Virus record (IMG/VR): IMGVR_UViG_2526164662_000046
From: a virus
Taxonomy: Duplodnaviria; Heunggongvirae; Uroviricota; Caudoviricetes
DNA: 21,541 bases
Strand: one strand, 5' to 3'
Part shown: in pieces, positions 5,440 to 19,902 of the stretch
Layout: the number at the start of each line of letters is the position of its first letter
Position numbering within the stretch: position 1 is the first letter of the stretch
Notes under the pieces: generated by a model
The model's database searches: none
The model's input: the letters and a program-made list of their open reading frames with translations, nothing else
What the model was told of the DNA's origin: nothing
Program-made: the position numbers and the translations under genes

Positions 5440-6978
5440 TTATTCAGTCGGCAGTGCTACGCGCCAGGGGAGCAGTTCGCCGACCCGGTTTATCGGCCAG
5501 TCGGCTATGACGTCAAGGACATAGCGGAGGTAGCTTTCTGGCTCCACTCCGTTCAGTTTGCACGTCCCGATCAGGCTGTACAGCAGCGCTCCCCGCTCTC
5601 CTCCATGATCCGAACCGAAGAACAGGTAGTTTTTGCGGCCCAGACTGACCATCCGCAACGCATTTTCAGCGATGTTATTGTCCGCCTCAGCCCAGCCATC
5701 ATCTGCATAGTACGTCAGCGCCGGCCACTGGTTCAGGGCGTATGCGAACGCTTTCGCCAGTTCTGAGTGTCGCGACAGGGTTTTCATCTTTTCACGCAGC
5801 CAGCTTTCCAGGGATTTCAGCAGCGGTTTCGTTTTCAACTGACGTTCGGCAAGGCGCTGCTCCGCCGTCATTCCCCTTATCTCTGCCTCGATGGCGTACA
5901 GTTCGCCGATCCGTTTCAGCGCTTCCTCCGTCAGGGCTGACGGGGTGCGAACGTGCACATCGTGGATTTTACGGCGGGCGTGAGCCCAACAGGCGGCTTC
6001 CGTTATCCGGCCATCCCGGTACAGCTCGTTGAACCCGGCGTATGCATCCGCCTGCAGTACACCACTGAACCCCGCAAGATGGGTCTGCGGATGGATGCCT
6101 TTTCTGTCCGGGCTGTAAGCGAACAACACCGCCGGCGCCAGCGTTGACCCGGCGTTACGGTCGTCACGAACGTAGGTCCATAACCGCCCGGTCTTCGTTT
6201 TCTTATTGCCTGGCAACAGCACCGGGACAGGCGTGTCATCAGCATGGAGCTTACCGTCAGTCAGCACATAGTCCTGAAGCGCTTCTTCCAGCGGTGACAG
6301 TAGCCGGCAGCATGCATCCACCCAGCCCGACAGCAGTGAACGACTCAGCTCCACGCCCTGGCGGCCGTACATTTCAGACTGGCGGTACAGCGGGGTGTGC
6401 TCTGCATACTTTGAGATCAGCACGCGGGCCAGCAGCCCCGGTCCTGCGATACCCCGCTCGATGGGCCGTGAAGGCGCGGGGGCCTGCACGATGGCATCGC
6501 ACTGAGTACAGGCATGCTTTTCACGTACAGTCCGGATAACCCGGAAGGCGCTGCGCATCAACTCCAGCTGTTCGGCGGCATCCTCACCCAGATAGCTCAG
6601 TGAGCCTCCACATTCCGGGCAGCATGATGCTGCCGGCAGCAGCCGTTTTTCATCGCGGGGGAGTGATTCGGGGAACGGTTTGCGGGTGCGGGTTTGACGC
6701 AGCGGGCGCTGCACGGCCGGGTCGTCAACCCGACCGGTAAGGGTATCACTTTCTTTCTGAAGTGCCTTCAGGTCAGCTTCCATCTGTGCGATACGACGGG
6801 AGACTTTTTCGGAGCGGCTGCCGAAGTTCATCCGGCGCAGCTTATCCAGCTGTGCCTGCAGATGGTCTATTTCGCGTTCACGCTCGTTCAGCTTTTCCAG
6901 CAGGGCACGGTTCAGCGCCTCCTGTTCGGCAAGGAGACGTTTCAGTGCATTGATATCGTCAGGAAGTGAGCTGCTCAT
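5440..6978 (-). CDS. IS66-family transposase (TnpC/Orf3)
   Basis: 512-aa ORF with N-terminal coiled-coil/leucine-zipper ([38 protein letters not shown]) and CPECGG / CTQCD zinc-finger-like motifs typical of IS66 transposases. Confidence 0.85.
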
Positions 6979-7026
6979 ACCGGGTATATTACCAGGCTCA
7001 TTCAGCGTCGACCAGGATAAAGAGGC

Positions 7027-7374
7027 TTACAACATAGTCAGGGACGTAAGCAGTCTTTTAGGCTGCCGCCAGTCGATACCTTCCAGCAGCATCGCCAGCT
7101 GTGCCGGTGTGAGGAACACTTTGCCATCCCGGGCTGACGGCCAGGCGAAGCGGCCGCGCTCCAGCCGTTTGGTCAGCAGACACAGTCCATCGCCGGTAGA
7201 CCAGAGGAGCTTTACCTGACTGCCATTACGCCCACGGAAGATAAAAACGTGACCTGACATCGGATCGTCTTTCAGCGTCGTCTGCACCTTTGCCGCCAGG
7301 CCGTTGAAGCCGTTTCTCATATCGGTGATGCCAGCGACCAGCCAGATCTTTGTCCCTGATGGTAATGGGATCAA
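7027..7374 (-). CDS. IS66-family accessory protein TnpB (Orf2)
   Basis: 115 aa; position and size match IS66 Orf2; start overlaps the tnpA stop (ATGA at 7371-7374). Confidence 0.8.
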   Translation of the reverse strand: MIPLPSGTKIWLVAGITDMRNGFNGLAAKVQTTLKDDPMSGHVFIFRGRNGSQVKLLWSTGDGLCLLTKRLERGRFAWPSARDGKVFLTPAQLAMLLEGIDWRQPKRLLTSLTML

Positions 7375-7775
7375 CGTTTGAGCTCCCGTATCAGCAGGTT
7401 CAGGATATTTTCGCTGATGGCACCATTCAGACGGAGTGATCCGTGCCGGAACGTCACTTCACAGCTGATATTGAGTGATTCAGGTGTCGCAGCAGCTACA
7501 GGTTGTGACCGGGGGGAGGTTGTAGGGACAACATCTTCGGCATCAAGTGTTATCGGGAGCAGCTCAGGCACGTTGTTTTCTGTTGTTGAAGGAGGACGTA
7601 GTTTTCCTTCGCGCCAGTACTGGCGCCACTTGAACAGCAAATTATCGTTGATCCCATGCTCACGAGCGAGTTGCGCTACGGAGATCTCTGGTCGATGCGA
7701 GAGTTCAACCATTTTGATTTTGAACTCAACGGGATAATTAGGGCTTTTTTTACGCACTGCGGTTAATGATTTCAT
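7371..7775 (-). CDS. IS66-family accessory protein TnpA (Orf1)
   Basis: 134 aa with HTH-like region (ISVAQLAREHGINDNLLFKWRQ); first ORF inside the IS end. Confidence 0.8.
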   Translation of the reverse strand: MKSLTAVRKKSPNYPVEFKIKMVELSHRPEISVAQLAREHGINDNLLFKWRQYWREGKLRPPSTTENNVPELLPITLDAEDVVPTTSPRSQPVAAATPESLNISCEVTFRHGSLRLNGAISENILNLLIRELKR

Positions 7776-14426: not shown

Positions 14427-14874
14427 TTGCTTTTTCTATAAGTTCGTCAGTTTCACGATCCACTACGGCAGGATCAGCAAAAAGCAGTCCGGACTCCACC
14501 ACATCGCCATATTCTTTGTTTAACCCGGCGATCATGTACGTGATGCTTTTTCCGTCACTAATTTCACGATACAACCTGAAATCATTAATCCGGATAGCCT
14601 CCATAATTGCAGGCACTAGCGCCGTGAACTTTTCACGCTTATCCCTGGTGTCGATAGCCTTCCAGCGTTCGAATATCTTCACTCGATTAACGCCAAGCGC
14701 TCGCTGATCAACCGCGCCACCTTCATCTGTGACACGCTGAACATCGATGTTCGGGCGCTCTTTCAAAGCCCAGAATGCTTCAGTGATTAATATCGTCGCC
14801 TGCTCCTGTGTCATTCCTGGTCGACATATCCAGGCATCCAGAGCCTCACGAGCCTGTTCAGGAGTGATTTTCAT
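14353..14874 (-). CDS. YdaT-like prophage protein (CII-position gene), 173 aa
   Basis: Start ATG 14872-14874 overlaps the dicC stop by 17 nt (translational coupling); segment KREKFTALVPAIMEAIRINDFRLYREISDG resembles Rac YdaT as I recall it. Assignment is tentative. Confidence 0.55.
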   Translation of the reverse strand: MKITPEQAREALDAWICRPGMTQEQATILITEAFWALKERPNIDVQRVTDEGGAVDQRALGVNRVKIFERWKAIDTRDKREKFTALVPAIMEAIRINDFRLYREISDGKSITYMIAGLNKEYGDVVESGLLFADPAVVDRETDELIEKAIAFKLAYRQQYQQKAGWNYEPSFC

Positions 14875-15088
14875 TGTTCAACCGCCCCGCCCGCTTCGTC
14901 TTACGATATTCGTCATAAACCTTGGGATCATACAGAAGCTCCCCGCCAGATGCCTCCTGTAGACGCATCGCGCGACCTTCAGGAACCAGTATCCCCCAAG
15001 CAGCAACACTTGCCAGTCTCACTCCTGCGGCATTGGCAAGCTTTGTTTTGCTGCCAAAAAAAGTAATTGCGTCAACTTTAAGCATCAA
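14858..15088 (-). CDS. dicC: Cro-like transcriptional regulator DicC
   Basis: 76 aa MMLKVDAITFFGSKTKLANAAGVRLASVAAWGILVPEGRAMRLQEASGGELLYDPKVYDEYRKTKRAGRLNNENHS; divergent from dicA across a 77-bp operator region; matches K-12 DicC in length and recalled sequence. Confidence 0.8.
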   Translation of the reverse strand: MMLKVDAITFFGSKTKLANAAGVRLASVAAWGILVPEGRAMRLQEASGGELLYDPKVYDEYRKTKRAGRLNNENHS

Positions 15089-15099
15089 AGCCCCCTCTT

Positions 15100-15115
15100 G
15101 TTAGACTTTTCTAAC
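15100..15115. promoter_or_regulatory. Palindromic operator in dicC-dicA divergent promoter region
   Basis: GTTAGA-cttt-TCTAAC, perfect 6-bp arms with 4-bp spacer, centred between the dicC and dicA starts; same half-site as the palindrome at 15609-15628. Confidence 0.6.
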
Positions 15116-15165
15116 ATTATTGTGCGCGGGATATCTAAGTCAAGAAAAATTAGAATTACCTAACT

Positions 15166-15573
15166 ATGGATACAAGAACCCTAGGCCAGCGAGTTCTGGC
15201 GCGACGAAAAGAATTACGCTTAACACAACGAGAAGCTGCGCGCCTCGCTGGAGTTGCTCACGTCACAATTTCACAATGGGAAAGAGACGAAACCCAGCCA
15301 GTCGGAAAACGATTGTTTGCTTTAGCGGATGCTCTGAAGTGCTCACCTACATGGCTAATGTTTGGTGACGAAGACAAGGCACCAGTGCCTGCACAAGAAC
15401 TTCATGTGGAAACAGAGCTAACTCCCAACCACAAAGAATTGATCGAATTATTCGATGCTCTTCCATCTTCCGAGCAGGAAGCCTTGCTGTCTGAAATGCG
15501 CGCAAGAGTAGAAAACTTCAACAAACTCTTCGAAGAAATGCTTAAAGCGCGTAAAAATAAATCAATAAAATAA
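15166..15573 (+). CDS. dicA: C2/CI-like HTH repressor DicA
   Basis: 135 aa; HTH (LTQREAARLAGVAHVTISQWERDETQP); C-terminal ...EMRARVENFNKLFEEMLKARKNK matches K-12 DicA as recalled. Confidence 0.85.
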   Translation: MDTRTLGQRVLARRKELRLTQREAARLAGVAHVTISQWERDETQPVGKRLFALADALKCSPTWLMFGDEDKAPVPAQELHVETELTPNHKELIELFDALPSSEQEALLSEMRARVENFNKLFEEMLKARKNKSIK

Positions 15574-15608
15574 CATTCTTTTCAAGTGATTAGTTGCGCC
15601 CACTCTTT

Positions 15609-15628
15609 TTGTTAGACCAATCTAACAA
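15609..15628. promoter_or_regulatory. Palindromic operator upstream of the ydfA-dicB operon (putative DicA site at the dicB-operon promoter)
   Basis: TTGTTAGA-ccaa-TCTAACAA, perfect 8-bp arms with 4-bp spacer; a degenerate third copy gttagg-ttat-tctaaa lies at 15647-15662. Confidence 0.6.
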
Positions 15629-15741
15629 AAAACACTTGCCTATCATGTTAGGTTATTCTAAATTACTTTCCATCAAGACACCGCACGGTGTTCTCAGCAA
15701 ACAGTTCCGCTACCCCGGCGTTAAGGGGAAATGAGGTCAGC

Positions 15742-15897
15742 ATGGATACTATCGATCTTGGCAACAGCGAATCTCTGGTATGTGGCGTGTTCCCCAACCA
15801 GGACGGCACGTTCACCGCGATGACGTATACCAAAAGCAAAACGTTTAAAACCGAAAATGGTGCCCGTCGCTGGCTGGAAAGAAACTCAGGTGAGTGA
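15742..15897 (+). CDS. ydfA: Small prophage protein YdfA
   Basis: 51 aa MDTIDLGNSESLVCGVFPNQDGTFTAMTYTKSKTFKTENGARRWLERNSGE; ATG 15742 with GAGGT Shine-Dalgarno; first gene of the dicB operon. Confidence 0.8.
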   Translation: MDTIDLGNSESLVCGVFPNQDGTFTAMTYTKSKTFKTENGARRWLERNSGE

Positions 15898-15898
15898 T

Positions 15899-16474
15899 AT
15901 GGATTTCGACACAATCATGGAAAAGGCTTACGAAGAATACTTCGAAGGCCTTGCCGAAGGCGAAGAAGCTCTCAGCTTCAGTGAGTTTAAACAGGCACTC
16001 AGAATAAGAATGTGCTCTCACAATGACGCGGAGCACAAATATGAGAAGCAAAATCAGACCGCAGAAAATTTTGTTCTGGAACCCGGAGAAACGCTTTTCA
16101 AAATTCCCGTTACGTGCCCCATTTGCGGTTTTACATCAGAAGAACTTGACGACTCCTGTAACAATCAGGAAACAACCAAGTATGTCGAAGATGATACCGA
16201 GTGCGCACGAAGAACGATTATATCCACGAGTCCAAACTCCAGGGCCAATAAATCTCACTTTGAGAGGGTGATTAATCCACTCCCCCAAACCAATAAAAAA
16301 GATGCCGGAGGACAAAAAACCCAATGGAACAACGGGATATCTGTCAAAAAAAGACGTTCCATTAAAGACAAACAACGCAGCGCCAACAACTGTAAGCGCT
16401 TTATACCAGTAATCAATTTTCATGTTCTTAAGCGGATTTATTGGTGGTTGCGACATTGCTTAATGAATCCTTAA
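15899..16474 (+). CDS. YdfB/YdfC-like ORF (N-terminal about 100 aa credible; C-terminal extension doubtful)
   Basis: ATG 15899 overlaps the ydfA stop; MDFDTIMEKAYEEYFEGLAEGEEALSFSEFKQALRIRMCSHNDA... with C-x2-C (TCPICG); the last about 100 codons are Lys/Arg/Asn-rich, use rare codons (AGA, AGG, ATA, CGA) and overlap a better-looking minus-strand ORF. Confidence 0.45.
   Translation: MDFDTIMEKAYEEYFEGLAEGEEALSFSEFKQALRIRMCSHNDAEHKYEKQNQTAENFVLEPGETLFKIPVTCPICGFTSEELDDSCNNQETTKYVEDDTECARRTIISTSPNSRANKSHFERVINPLPQTNKKDAGGQKTQWNNGISVKKRRSIKDKQRSANNCKRFIPVINFHVLKRIYWWLRHCLMNP
16136..16456 (-). CDS. Candidate small membrane protein (95-106 aa), antisense within the dicB operon
   Basis: Hydrophobic segments (ALTVVGAALFVF, LGFLSSGIFFIGLG, ALGIIFDILGCFLIVTG); AAGGA about 11 nt upstream of ATG 16454-16456 (alternative start MKIDYW); codon usage looks more coding-like than the overlapping plus-strand frame. 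Not confirmed. Confidence 0.4.
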   Translation of the reverse strand: MSQPPINPLKNMKIDYWYKALTVVGAALFVFNGTSFFDRYPVVPLGFLSSGIFFIGLGEWINHPLKVRFIGPGVWTRGYNRSSCALGIIFDILGCFLIVTGVVKFF

Positions 16475-16733
16475 AACTGTGGTGATTTTAAGGATACCAC
16501 CTCGCCTGACGTGGTTAAAAGCAGGCACACAACACGAAAGCGCACGGCGAAGTTCGTCTCACTGTACGGTGTCGTTAAATTTAATTCGACCGTGCGCTTC
16601 CGGTTGTGGCAACCCGCAAAATGGCGCGGCGGTAAGTATGGCGGGGTTATTCCTTCCCCGTTGAGGACACCGGGTTGTCAGGTTGACCATACGCTTAAGT
16701 GACAACCCCGCTGCAACGCCCTCTGTTATCAAT

Positions 16734-16786
16734 TTTCTGGTGACGTTTGGCGGTATCAGTTTTACTCCGTGACTGCTCTGCCGCCG
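16734..16786 (+). ncRNA. dicF: DicF small RNA (Hfq-dependent antisense sRNA targeting ftsZ and others)
   Basis: tttctggtgacgtttggcggtatcagttttactccgtgactgctctgccgccg matches the 53-nt DicF sequence as I recall it, including the 3' GGCGG...CCGCC stem and following T-run (16787-16791); correct position upstream of dicB. Confidence 0.8.
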
Positions 16787-16960
16787 TTTTTAAAGTGAAT
16801 TTTGTTATGCGGTGAATGCGGCTAAGCGCACGCGGAACAGTTAAAACCAAAAACAGTGTTATGGGTGGATTCTCTGTATCCGACGTTAATTGTTAACTGG
16901 TTAACGTCACCTGGAGGCACCAGGCACTGCATCACAAAATTTATTGTTGAGGACGCGATA

Positions 16961-17149
16961 ATGAAAACGTTATTACCAAACGTTAATACGTCTGAAGGTT
17001 GTTTTGAAATTGGTGTCACTATCAGTAACCCTGTATTTACTGAAGATGCCATTAACAAGAGAAAACAAGAACGGGAGCTATTAAATAAAATATGCATTGT
17101 TTCAATGCTGGCTCGTTTACGTCTGATGCCAAAAGGATGTGCACAATGA
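16961..17149 (+). CDS. dicB: Cell-division inhibitor DicB (MinC-dependent)
   Basis: 62 aa MKTLLPNVNTSEGCFEIGVTISNPVFTEDAINKRKQERELLNKICIVSMLARLRLMPKGCAQ; ATG 16961 with GAGGA Shine-Dalgarno; the ORF track extends upstream to 16856. Confidence 0.85.
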   Translation: MKTLLPNVNTSEGCFEIGVTISNPVFTEDAINKRKQERELLNKICIVSMLARLRLMPKGCAQ

Positions 17150-17337
17150 ATTCAGCATTTGCGCTTGTTCTGACAGTTTTTCTTGTTTCCGGAGTGCCAG
17201 TTGATATTGCAGTCAGTGTTCACAGGACAATGCAGGAGTGTATGACTGCAGCAACCGAACAGAAAATTCCCGGTAACTGTTACCCGGTCGATAAAGTTAT
17301 TAACCAGGATAATATCGAAATCTCGGCAGGTCTTTAA
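17146..17337 (+). CDS. ydfD: Small membrane lysis/toxic protein YdfD
   Basis: 63 aa MNSAFALVLTVFLVSGVPVDIAVSVHRTMQECMTAATEQKIPGNCYPVDKVINQDNIEISAGL; ATG overlaps the dicB stop (ATGA); N-terminal transmembrane helix. Confidence 0.8.
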   Translation: MNSAFALVLTVFLVSGVPVDIAVSVHRTMQECMTAATEQKIPGNCYPVDKVINQDNIEISAGL

Positions 17338-17430
17338 AACAGTTCCGTAATAAATATCCGGTTTCATTCTTATATGCCAGCAATGGCAGGGATTTGTTCA
17401 TCCTTAAATCTGTCATGAGGTTAAAACAAA

Positions 17431-19902
17431 ATGAGTAAAGTCTTTATTTGCGCCGCTATTCCTGACGAACTGGCAACAAGGGAAGAAGGCGCTGTGGCTG
17501 TAGCCACAGCCATTGAAGCTGGCGACGAACGCCGTGCTCGAGCAAAATTTCACTGGCAATTCCTGGAACATTATCCGGCTGCTCAGGACTGCGCTTATAA
17601 ATTTATTGTCTGCGAGGATAAACCTGGCATACCCCGCCCTGCCCTCGATTCATGGGATGCTGAATATATGCAGGAAAACCGCTGGGATGAGGAGTCTGCT
17701 TCTTTTGTCCCGAATGAGACTGAATCCGATCCGATGAACGTCACTTTTGACAAGCTGGCCCCTGAAGTACAGAACGCTGTCATGGTTAAGTTCGACACAT
17801 GTGAAAACATCACCGTTGATATGGTTATTAGCGCACAGGAATTGTTGCAGGAAGACATGGCAACATTCGACGGACATATCGTTGAAGCGTTGATGAAAAT
17901 GCCAGAAGTTAACGCCATGTATCCGGAGCTTAAGTTGCACGCCATTGGGTGGGTTAAGCATAAATGTATTCCTGGTGCTAAATGGCCCGAAATTCAGGCA
18001 GAGATGCGCATCTGGAAAAAACGTCGCGAAGGTGAACGCAAGGAAACCGGAAAATACACGTCTGTTGTTGATCTCGCACGCGCCAGAGCCAATCAACAGT
18101 ACACTGAAAATTCAACAGGAAAAATCAGCCCGGTCATTGCTGCCATTCATCGCGAATACAAGCAGACATGGAAAACACTGGATGACGAACTGGCCTACGC
18201 TCTCTGGCCTGGTGATGTGGATGCCGGAAACATTGACGGCAGCATCCATCGCTGGGCAAAAAAAGAAGTTATCGACAACGACCGCGAAGACTGGAAGCGT
18301 ATCTCGGCATCAATGCGCAAACAGCCTGATGCCCTTCGCTACGACCGCCAGACTATTTTTGGCCTTGTCCGTGAGCGTCCGATCGACATTCACAAAGATC
18401 CCGTAGCACTGAACAAATATATCTGCGAATACCTGACGACAAAGGGCGTGTTTGAGAATGAAGAAACAGACCTGGGCACTGTTGATGTTCTCCAGTCATC
18501 AGAAACACAAACTGATGCAGTGGAAACTGAGGTATCTGATATCCCAAAAAATGAAACCGCGCCGGAAGCTGAACCATCTGTAGAGCGTGAGGGGCCGTTC
18601 TATTTCCTCTTCGCAGATAAGGACGGAGAAAAATACGGTCGCGCAAACAAACTTTCTGGTCTGGATAAGGCACTGGCTGCTGGCGCCACTGAAATCACAA
18701 AAGAAGAATATTTTGCCCGAAAAAATGGCACATACACGGGCTTACCGCAAAATGTAGATACCGCTGAAGATTCAGAACAACCAGAGCCGATAAAAGTTAC
18801 CGCTGACGAAGTAAACAAAATTATGCAGGCAGCCAATATCAGCCAGCCTGACGCTGATAAGTTGCTTGCTGCATCACGTGGTGAATTTGTTGAAGGGATT
18901 AGTGACCCGAATGATCCGAAATGGGTTAAGGGGATCCAGACCCGCGATTCTGTGAACCAGAACCAGCATGAATCGGAACGGAACTACCAAAAAGCGGAAC
19001 AAAACAGTCCAAATGCGTTACAAAACGAGCCAGTAACGAAACAGCCTGAACCAGTAGCGCAACAGGAAGTGGAAAAAGTCTGCACCGCCTGCGGTCAGAC
19101 CGGCGGCGGCAACTGCCCTGATTGTGGCGCGGTGATGGGCGACGCAACATACCAGGAAACATTCGATGAAGAGTATCAGGTTGAAGTTCAGGAAGATGAT
19201 CCGGAGGAAATGCAAGGCGCTGAACATCCACACAAGGAGAACACTGGCGGCAATCAGCATCACAATAGCGATAATGAAACTGGCGAGACGGCAGATCACC
19301 CAATTAAGGTGAACGGTCATCACGAAATCACATCCACCAGCAGGACGTGTGACCATCTAATGATCGACCTTGAAACCATGGGAAAAAATCCTGATGCCCC
19401 GATCATCTCAATAGGTGCAATATTTTTCGATCCGCAAACCGGAGATATGGGACCGGAATTTAGTAAGACTATCGATCTGGAAACTGCTGGCGGAGTCATT
19501 GATCGGGACACCATTAAATGGTGGCTTAAGCAATCACGCGAAGCGCAATCTGCCATTATGACCGATGAAATCCCGTTAGATGATGCACTGTTACAATTGC
19601 GGGAATTTATCGACGAAAACTCCGGTGAATTTTTTGTTCAGGTCTGGGGAAATGGAGCCAACTTCGACAACACGATTTTGCGCCGTTCATACGAACGGCA
19701 GGGGATCCCCTGCCCGTGGCGTTACTACAACGATCGCGATGTACGCACAATCGTTGAGCTGGGGAAAGCCATAGACTTCGATGCCAGAACGGCTATTCCA
19801 TTCGAAGGTGAGCGCCATAATGCACTTGATGACGCCCGTTACCAGGCAAAATACGTTTCAGTTATCTGGCAAAAACTGATCCCGAGTCAGGCTGATTCTT
19901 AA
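17431..19902 (+). CDS. Prophage exonuclease, 823 aa, with C-terminal DnaQ-like DEDDh 3'-5' exonuclease domain and internal zinc ribbon (YdfE-like, full length)
   Basis: GAGG Shine-Dalgarno before ATG 17431; C-terminal motifs MIDLETMG (Exo I), WGNGANFDNTIL (Exo II), HNALDDARY (Exo III with His); C-x2-C-x9-C-x2-C (CTACGQTGGGNCPDC); acidic low-complexity linker. Occupies the ydfE position (downstream of ydfD, upstream of xis/int). Confidence 0.8.
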   Translation: MSKVFICAAIPDELATREEGAVAVATAIEAGDERRARAKFHWQFLEHYPAAQDCAYKFIVCEDKPGIPRPALDSWDAEYMQENRWDEESASFVPNETESDPMNVTFDKLAPEVQNAVMVKFDTCENITVDMVISAQELLQEDMATFDGHIVEALMKMPEVNAMYPELKLHAIGWVKHKCIPGAKWPEIQAEMRIWKKRREGERKETGKYTSVVDLARARANQQYTENSTGKISPVIAAIHREYKQTWKTLDDELAYALWPGDVDAGNIDGSIHRWAKKEVIDNDREDWKRISASMRKQPDALRYDRQTIFGLVRERPIDIHKDPVALNKYICEYLTTKGVFENEETDLGTVDVLQSSETQTDAVETEVSDIPKNETAPEAEPSVEREGPFYFLFADKDGEKYGRANKLSGLDKALAAGATEITKEEYFARKNGTYTGLPQNVDTAEDSEQPEPIKVTADEVNKIMQAANISQPDADKLLAASRGEFVEGISDPNDPKWVKGIQTRDSVNQNQHESERNYQKAEQNSPNALQNEPVTKQPEPVAQQEVEKVCTACGQTGGGNCPDCGAVMGDATYQETFDEEYQVEVQEDDPEEMQGAEHPHKENTGGNQHHNSDNETGETADHPIKVNGHHEITSTSRTCDHLMIDLETMGKNPDAPIISIGAIFFDPQTGDMGPEFSKTIDLETAGGVIDRDTIKWWLKQSREAQSAIMTDEIPLDDALLQLREFIDENSGEFFVQVWGNGANFDNTILRRSYERQGIPCPWRYYNDRDVRTIVELGKAIDFDARTAIPFEGERHNALDDARYQAKYVSVIWQKLIPSQADS

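Follow-up and report, generated by a model that had tools for sequence, protein, structure and literature searches.

The stretch of DNA analysed here (the window; 21,541 nucleotides, IMG/VR virus record IMGVR_UViG_2526164662_000046) covers the immunity and early-left region of an Escherichia coli lambdoid prophage that resembles Qin and Rac. The subject of this report is the interval between ydfA and the gene for the small RNA (sRNA) DicF, in which two long open reading frames (ORFs) overlap on opposite strands (Table 1). The plus-strand ORF comprises 191 codons and a stop, and its ATG lies one base beyond the stop codon of ydfA (15895–15897), while the convergent minus-strand ORF encodes a hydrophobic protein (grand average of hydropathy, GRAVY, +0.64). 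An earlier note, made from the letters of this DNA, had described both ORFs (giving the plus-strand one as 192 codons from the ydfA stop), the three helix-like segments of the minus-strand product and a ydfA-to-dicF distance of about 835 bp, and had given sizes of about 42 and 72 aa for YdfB and YdfC of E. coli K-12; all of this proved accurate, the distance being 837 nt. The same note had set the two ORFs against each other as alternatives, a framing that does not hold, as both frames show selection: a CPxCG module and stop avoidance on the plus strand, and amino-acid constraint in the minus frame. A 1.1-kb query around the interval (15700–16800) matched E. coli strain 190 at 100% identity, and almost its whole length was recovered from 790 of 5426 complete E. 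coli genomes.

Table 1 Features of the immunity and early-left region, in window coordinates
Feature	Position	Strand	Remarks
dicC-like gene	14858–15088	minus	
dicA-like repressor gene	15166–15573		
ydfA	15742–15897	plus	DUF1391 family; precedes the cassette; homologous to Rac ydaF
Long plus-strand ORF	15899–16474	plus	ATG at 15899, TAA at 16472–16474
First 33 codons of ydfB	15899–15996	plus	sole part of the long plus-strand ORF homologous to K-12 ydfB
Swapped-in cassette	15997 to ~16520	no strand	right edge fuzzy, 16517–16530
CPICGF motif of the plus-strand protein	16115–16132	plus	CxxC exactly 8 codons before the stop of the membrane-protein gene
Membrane-protein gene	16136–16456	minus	106 aa, three helices, unnamed family
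Conserved non-coding block	16457–16530	minus	upstream of the membrane-protein gene; extended -10-like element and two hairpins
DicF sRNA	16735–16786	plus	RF00039, 72.5 bits (gathering score 48); same operon, downstream
dicB	16962–17149		after DicF; followed by ydfD, then an 823-aa exonuclease gene

The minus-strand product belongs to a widespread protein family. Homologues were recovered as 60 matches to the single sequence, 458 matches to a profile and 508 matches among 50%-identity representatives, nearly all of them 100–115 aa long, and were encoded by Gamma- and Betaproteobacteria, Desulfobacterota, Campylobacterota, Nitrospirota, Planctomycetota and one actinomycete metagenome-assembled genome (MAG). 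The family is marked by the motifs DYWYKA and GLGEWINHPL, both of which are present in the window protein, whose length also falls within the family range; the residues found to be invariant in the family alignments (W17, E59, W60, N62, P64, G87 and G94) are all kept. Pairwise ratios of nonsynonymous to synonymous differences (pN/pS) in the minus frame were 0.11–0.42, with most differences at the third codon position. Among 84 E. coli copies, representing 26 haplotypes, the minus-strand ORF was intact in every haplotype, and 12 polymorphisms were synonymous in the minus frame and nonsynonymous in the plus frame, against 4 of the reverse type. The AlphaFold2 (AF2) model of the protein was confident (predicted local distance difference test score, pLDDT, 91.9), with helices at residues 17–32, 42–62 and 85–105 and a beta-hairpin (strands 66–71 and 74–78) in a positively charged loop after the second helix. 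Judged by these comparisons, the minus-strand ORF is a genuine, conserved gene for a small membrane protein under ordinary purifying selection. The antisense membrane-protein gene suspected in the earlier note is thus borne out by a conserved family, low pN/pS, intactness in all haplotypes and a confident fold; the note had named synonymous-site constraint confined to the plus frame as evidence that would speak against it, and the outcome was the opposite, with the amino-acid constraint sitting on the minus frame.

The family could not be connected to a described one. A Pfam scan of the 106-aa protein returned two unrelated sub-threshold matches and no SieB, and no relative was found in PHROGs, NCBIfam, PADLOC or the PDB sequences. 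Fold searches with the protein retrieved generic helical bundles only, with no likeness to SieB, RexB or Imm, and its longer homologues carried no informative domain fusion (one PsbP_2 match). A viral scan with the Yersinia protein gave no matches.

Some members of the family were found in settings of their own. On a Shigella flexneri chromosome (locus L048, 6001–6282) the gene appears to be a pseudogene, the open frame around the motif being just 46 aa long. In Desulfobulbales MAGs (L049–L056) a divergent subfamily without DYWYKA occupies a conserved chromosomal locus beside genes that, by sequence, appear to encode NiFe-hydrogenase subunits; a link to the hydrogenase was set aside as synteny among close relatives. 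On a metagenome contig (L009, 1309–3513) the family gene comes third, after a reverse-transcriptase gene (RVT_1, 430 aa) and a 132-aa ORF; this 132-aa ORF also precedes the family gene in Reinekea. Three copies with identical match statistics are present on the chromosome of an Arcobacter sp. (L037, L038 and L039), and the copy examined (L037) lies near a LexA/S24-type repressor, which suggests a repeated prophage or mobile element.

Comparison with K-12 showed how this gene came to lie between ydfA and dicF. In a K-12-like genome the ydfA-to-DicF interval is 719 nt, giving an excess of 118 nt in the window instead of the roughly 400 bp estimated in the earlier note, and the alignment revealed a replacement, not the inserted segment that the note had envisaged. 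In a blastn comparison with the K-12-like locus, positions 15700–15996 were aligned at 97% identity, after which the match ends; K-12-type homology restarts at about 16517. The ~520 bp in between stand for 399 bp of the K-12 type, comprising the 3' end of ydfB, ydfC and 120 bp downstream of ydfC. Homology to the 42-aa YdfB is limited to codons 1–33 of the long plus-strand ORF and is not full-length, and the Prokaryotic Genome Annotation Pipeline (PGAP) labels this stretch a truncated ydfB pseudogene. No YdfC homologue was detected, as no similarity was found between the window interval and positions 1798–2196 of the K-12-like locus. The window thus shares with K-12 the first 33 codons of ydfB, but has neither the C-terminus of YdfB nor any ydfC. 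The extra, moron-type material proposed in the note exists in the sense that the swapped-in DNA carries an antisense membrane-protein gene, whereas the accompanying idea of a type I toxin does not agree with the size and topology of the product.

The swapped-in DNA behaves as a mobile cassette. On its own it was found in 806 of 5426 complete E. coli genomes (~15%), and the K-12, O157 and BL21 alleles fill the same slot, with otherwise collinear prophages differing by its presence or absence. The two-gene unit was also encountered in Rac-like, P22-Cro/cI-S24, Yersinia, Scandinavium and Edwardsiella prophage backbones. The O157:H7 and BL21 alleles of the slot each hold one plus-strand gene and a convergent small minus-strand gene; the minus-strand products (L137 1511–1696, 61 aa with CPAC…CPEH, and L138 1141–1341, 66 aa) are unrelated to the membrane family and look soluble by sequence. 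Downstream of ydfC in the K-12-like locus (L002, 2200–2260), a degenerate stretch (…ATATCCTTTCAG…) aligns with the upstream block of the cassette (window 16470–16530), and one related genome has the run-on plus-strand ORF joined in frame to a ydfC homologue (protein P0299). Because of this alignment and this fusion, there are hints that the ydfC-type and cassette-type arrangements may derive from one another.

The long plus-strand ORF was found to be a chimera of three parts: the N-terminus of ydfB, a CPxCG module brought by the cassette, and a read-through tail antisense to the membrane-protein gene. The cassette part has a possible ATG of its own at 16010 and is joined in phase in the window to codons 1–33 of ydfB; elsewhere the ORF begins with a ydfA-type leader, with its own start codon, or with a longer N-terminal domain of ~100 aa that contains a further Cys pair. 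ATG-initiated versions of ~160 aa are present in Roseateles and in a gammaproteobacterial MAG, in the latter of which the antisense ORF abuts a downstream same-strand ORF, with the stop codon adjoining the ATG. A convergent ORF with the motif (I/V)PxxCPxCG(F) just before the overlap occurs in the window, an Escherichia sp., Yersinia, Edwardsiella and Scandinavium prophages, Roseateles and the gammaproteobacterial MAG, and the CxxC spacing of 8 codons as well as the codon-aligned antisense register are identical across these taxa, from E. coli to Roseateles. Between the window and a related prophage (L019), both differences within the CPICGF codons are synonymous in the plus frame, and over the last 24 plus-strand codons before the overlap pN/pS was 0.36–0.75 (median ~0.55), with changes mostly at the third codon position. 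In the Edwardsiella phage the plus-strand protein terminates at CPICGFTSE* and has no tail, and one Escherichia lineage has a nonsense codon inside the CPxCG motif; in the remaining lineages the plus frame is free of stops through the whole membrane-protein gene and ends a few codons past its start. The plus frame is therefore not a simple shadow of the minus gene, because the DNA just downstream of that gene encodes a conserved module. No Pfam family matched the plus-strand proteins, which match phrog_35040, phrog_19140 and phrog_37620 only.

A second, partial copy of the CPxCG gene (…GWDLIKIQVICPICGFTSE) was observed on an Edwardsiella-type phage contig (L141, 776–2537), where it is convergent to a different ORF of 156 aa, with two hydrophobic helices by eye and no Pfam match; an AbiH gene adjoins this second copy and a DUF2971 gene lies nearby. 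The 3' end of the CPxCG gene may be a module boundary, or CPxCG proteins may have partners among different kinds of membrane protein.

The tail itself is unlike an ordinary protein. The last 112 residues of the ORF include 12 Asn, 11 Lys and 10 Arg with a GRAVY of -1.09, in keeping with the Lys/Arg/Asn-rich, unprotein-like composition described in the earlier note, and the AF2 model of the long plus-strand ORF reached a pLDDT of 46 from a shallow alignment. In the overlap the antisense (plus-frame) pN/pS was 0.75–2.5, and tail identity equals the expectation imposed by the membrane protein once synonymous sites saturate, with no purifying selection on plus-frame amino acids. Across the overlap, the plus-strand RNA is rich in A and contains at least as much C as G. 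The plus register is closed in most of the family, with 1 to 17 stops in 26 of the 36 members compared; the lineages with an open register are that of the window and about nine others. Within E. coli, 2 of the 26 haplotypes carry a stop in the plus-strand ORF.

In this register, no sense codons other than TTA, CTA and TCA appear as stops on the opposite strand. The use of these three separates the lineages sharply. In the nine lineages with the partner ORF, pooled, they were seen 2 times against 32.7 expected, with the other A-ending codons at 127 against 142, whereas in sixteen lineages without the partner they were seen 138 times against 81 expected, with the other A-ending codons at 316 against 270. 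Given local codon usage, the chance of an open plus frame was 0.001–0.045 per lineage. Because the avoidance of TTA, CTA and TCA is specific and confined to the CPxCG-linked lineages, the codon counts argue that the plus frame is kept open by selection; taken with the unconstrained residues of the tail, this selection is directed against stops and not at the amino-acid sequence.

Immediately upstream of the membrane-protein gene lies a block of ~70 nt that codes on neither strand and yet is conserved beyond the gene itself among cassettes with 51–58% protein identity. It contains an invariant extended -10-like element (TGgTATCCT at 16499–16491; TGnTATC(C/A/T)T across seven lineages) and two hairpins (16497–16514 and 16467–16495), the second of which takes in Shine-Dalgarno-like bases (AAGGA) as well as the point where the long plus-strand ORF has its stop codon. 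Both hairpins form again in every homologue, from stems that differ in sequence; this rests on separate folding of each sequence, as RNAalifold on a MAFFT alignment recovered only hairpin 1 (hairpin 2 being misaligned). An Rfam scan of 15000–17500 gave no match over the block, the only hits being DicF and a weak match to the sRNA STnc100 between DicF and dicB (16798–16938, plus strand; 35.1 bits against a gathering score of 47, E 2e-5). A terminator scan called nothing stronger than a weak terminator-like site, of a kind that turns up at least as often in shuffled sequence. The block may serve as a promoter that includes an operator palindrome, or else as an RNA element belonging to either transcript. 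In three related prophages, the strand opposite to the membrane-protein gene carries a tRNA gene (Gly-CCC or Asn-GTT) ~120 nt upstream of it (L019 5802–5875, L020 3952–4033 and L022 3482–3563); the counterpart of this stretch in the window, before DicF, opens with the same ccggttgtgg and holds no tRNA.

With regard to genomic context, the family gene adjoins a cI/S24 or helix-turn-helix repressor gene in E. coli, Yersinia, Pantoea, Kushneria, Arcobacter and Scandinavium prophages, usually in convergent orientation, and runs against its neighbours in mEp390 and Bcep176. An AbiH gene and a DUF2971 gene are also present in the region of the Edwardsiella phage. In an all-against-all comparison of neighbours, the only recurrent partners were the repressor and the antisense ORF itself. 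Elsewhere in the window, three consecutive minus-strand ORFs of 512, 115 and 134 aa (5440–7775) resemble the pattern of an IS66-type insertion sequence by size alone.

The arrangement was compared to known systems. The Rac prophage of K-12 (L148, 2406–3312) follows the same grammar, with racR, ydaG, ydaF (DUF1391, the ydfA homologue), an antisense sieB, the kilS sRNA, kilR and an exonuclease gene, where the window has dicA, ydfA, the antisense membrane-protein gene, DicF and dicB; the 3' end of Rac sieB overlaps the convergent ydaF by 4 nt. In lambda, sieB likewise lies antisense within the PL operon, its 3' end adjoining that of N. The window gene thus resembles sieB as a gene for a small inner-membrane protein carried by a prophage and lying antisense in the early-left operon after the repressor. 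On the other hand, SieB (162–184 aa) has another architecture and, by Pfam, no sequence similarity to the window protein, the antisense frame of sieB is not kept open, and exclusion can be ascribed to the window gene only by analogy. Morons and immunity accessory genes such as rexAB and lactococcal sie are similar in being small genes beside the repressor that run against the flanking operon, with presence/absence variation and alternative alleles; they differ in that the window gene has a convergent overlapping partner ORF and no demonstrated terminator, and in that its family also occurs outside phages. It is known that long antiparallel ORFs occur commonly and for the most part do not code for protein, and stop avoidance opposite a conserved gene without a signal in the ratio of nonsynonymous to synonymous substitution rates (Ka/Ks) has been described statistically (bioRxiv 10.1101/724807). 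The window shows the same long ORF opposite a conserved gene, with stops avoided and little or no Ka/Ks signal, but here the avoidance is tied to an independently conserved CPxCG module at a fixed register and appears only in module-bearing lineages, and the two genes travel together as a cassette among prophage backbones and across proteobacterial classes. Translated antisense genes are known in enterohaemorrhagic E. coli (EHEC) and Pseudomonas, and related cases have been reported (PMC9927249, PMC8850804). A literature search by accession and gene names returned no description of this gene pair.

Taken together, the comparisons show that a mobile cassette of ~520 bp replaced the 3' end of ydfB and all of ydfC in a Qin/dicBF-type prophage operon, and that recombination fused its plus frame in phase to codons 1–33 of ydfB, giving the 191-codon ORF. 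As to function, we propose that the membrane protein would be a prophage moron occupying the sieB slot in the order repressor, DUF1391 gene, antisense membrane gene, sRNA and division inhibitor. Its synthesis probably takes place in the lysogen, driven by a putative promoter of its own, and by analogy with the genes that occupy this position it probably contributes to superinfection exclusion or abortive infection at the inner membrane; it is read as such an accessory because of its place in the sieB slot. The CPxCG ORF would belong to the DicA-repressed early operon. Because transcription and translation of that operon run through the membrane-protein gene, the two genes would be expressed in opposite states, with passage of the early operon across the membrane-protein gene silencing it; the early operon may also supply a dedicated partner or self-immunity factor. 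The tail may be translatable to provide ribosome cover for the operon mRNA, or it may be a functional disordered tail. We assign the whole statement, the two-gene cassette together with its functional reading, a probability of about 0.55. Taken alone, the structural part (a mobile cassette, a convergent overlapping pair, a conserved membrane-protein gene and a CPxCG ORF kept open over it) is very probably correct, while the functional part (a moron in the sieB slot, an exclusion-type role and a partner in the early operon) is tentative and, considered separately, somewhat doubtful. More specifically, the plus-strand tail could be made and act directly on the membrane protein as an antidote or self-immunity factor of the prophage. 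This would be a role like that of Esc of phage P22, an in-frame product of sieB that spares P22 from SieB; we consider it quite improbable. If it were true, the locus would be a natural sense-antisense protein pair moving as a unit from Enterobacteriaceae to Burkholderiales.

Several observations weigh against the proposal. The lineages in the codon test are mutually related, and third positions are saturated for most pairs but not for all. The tail is lacking in two lineages, the Edwardsiella phage and one Escherichia, and is thus dispensable at least sometimes, and the antisense frames of Rac sieB and lambda sieB are closed, with 7 and 9 stops, respectively. A consensus promoter scan called no promoter in the upstream block, the promoter being deduced from conservation alone. 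Finally, many family members lie outside recognisable prophages, as solitary genes without a partner ORF; because so many are non-prophage and partnerless, a general membrane role of the family is possible.

One alternative would be that only the minus-strand gene is functional and that the long plus-strand ORF is a chance shadow in a stop-poor, codon-aligned register, lengthened by an accidental junction with ydfB. Such a shadow would account for an antisense pN/pS of 0.75–2.5 and a tail without constraint beyond what the membrane-protein gene imposes, for its low-complexity N/K/R-rich composition and poor AF2 model, and for the stops seen in most family members and in two E. coli haplotypes, and it has in its favour that long antiparallel ORFs are common and mostly non-coding (bioRxiv 10.1101/724807). 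It leaves unexplained, however, why the three stop-generating codons are depleted (2 seen, 32.7 expected) only in the CPxCG-linked lineages while other A-ending codons are used normally, and why the module and its register are conserved across proteobacterial classes; we hold it to be improbable. The converse, that the plus-strand ORF alone is real and the minus-strand ORF spurious, corresponds to the annotation in some RefSeq genomes, in phage HannyBb and in PHROGs, and is refuted by the comparative data to the point of being practically discounted: the minus family keeps its invariant motifs across phyla, is under purifying selection and has a confidently predicted fold, and the plus register is closed in most homologues. 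A module similar to type I toxin-antitoxin systems, with the membrane protein as toxin and the convergent plus-strand transcript as antisense RNA antitoxin, had been suggested in the earlier note. A small hydrophobic protein fully covered by a convergent transcript, a prophage locus and Shine-Dalgarno-like bases inside a conserved hairpin would all suit such a module, but the product has 106 aa, with three helices and a beta-hairpin, and is not a single helix of fewer than 60 aa, hundreds of its homologues are solitary and lack an antisense partner, and the overlapping transcript, for which there is no Rfam match, would be the mRNA of a repressed operon and not a constitutive sRNA; the suggestion is accordingly very unlikely to be right.

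The two further alternatives concern what the open frame is for. The tail could be a functional disordered, basic extension of the CPxCG protein, with the membrane protein, nucleic acid or a host component as its target, and the locus would then be a true, fully overlapping antisense coding pair. The frame stays open in about ten lineages in spite of saturated synonymous sites, the ~160-aa ORFs of Roseateles and the gammaproteobacterial MAG have their own ATG, and gene callers and annotators often pick the plus-strand ORF (one cluster with 1798 member sequences; phrog_35040). Against this stand the missing amino-acid constraint in the overlap, the lack of a tail in the Edwardsiella phage, the nonsense codon that cuts it off in one Escherichia lineage and the absence of a predicted fold (from a shallow alignment); a functional tail is rather unlikely. 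Alternatively, the plus frame could be open solely for ribosome cover, protecting the early-operon mRNA from Rho-dependent polarity or from RNase acting on a sense-antisense duplex, with dicF, dicB and the later genes expressed after derepression. Selection on stops and not on residues is what such cover would produce; moreover, the ORF extends from one base past the ydfA stop to just past the start of the membrane-protein gene with no untranslated gap, same-strand genes or ORFs follow in every long-form locus with downstream sequence, and the RNA of the overlap is A-rich with C at least equal to G. Nevertheless, ~260 nt of untranslated RNA separate the ORF from DicF anyway, the Edwardsiella phage does without the tail, and the antisense strands of Rac and lambda sieB at the equivalent position are full of stops. 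The idea that every antisense gene of this operon type needs a covering ORF was rejected on the last of these grounds, and cover against polarity is not a general need of the operon type because the sieB antisense frames are closed; as the only reason for the open frame, ribosome cover is again rather unlikely. The two-gene cassette, with its frame held open by selection against stops, accommodates either of these purposes for the tail.

The locus has been annotated in incompatible ways. In RefSeq, some genomes carry only a truncated ydfB pseudogene with ~960 bp left empty, others the plus-strand ORF as a hypothetical protein (191 or 205 aa), and others the 106-aa minus-strand protein (WP_247162388.1 and others). 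Phage HannyBb and phrog_35040 use the plus-strand ORF, and mEp390_039 is the antisense ORF of the copy in mEp390. A cassette found in ~15% of complete E. coli genomes is thus described in three conflicting forms, and a membrane-protein family of ~500 clusters is without a Pfam, PHROG or NCBIfam model, with a PHROGs family existing for the plus frame only.

Beyond annotation, the locus offers a clean and rare comparative case of a long antisense ORF held open by selection, in which the signal is switched on or off with a linked coding module, and it is a tractable system for asking whether antiparallel ORFs avoid stops for the sake of translation as such or for their protein product. For the prophage, the position of the membrane-protein gene in the sieB slot of a dicBF-type operon suggests, by analogy, that it may provide a new exclusion or membrane function together with a switch between lysogenic and early-lytic expression.

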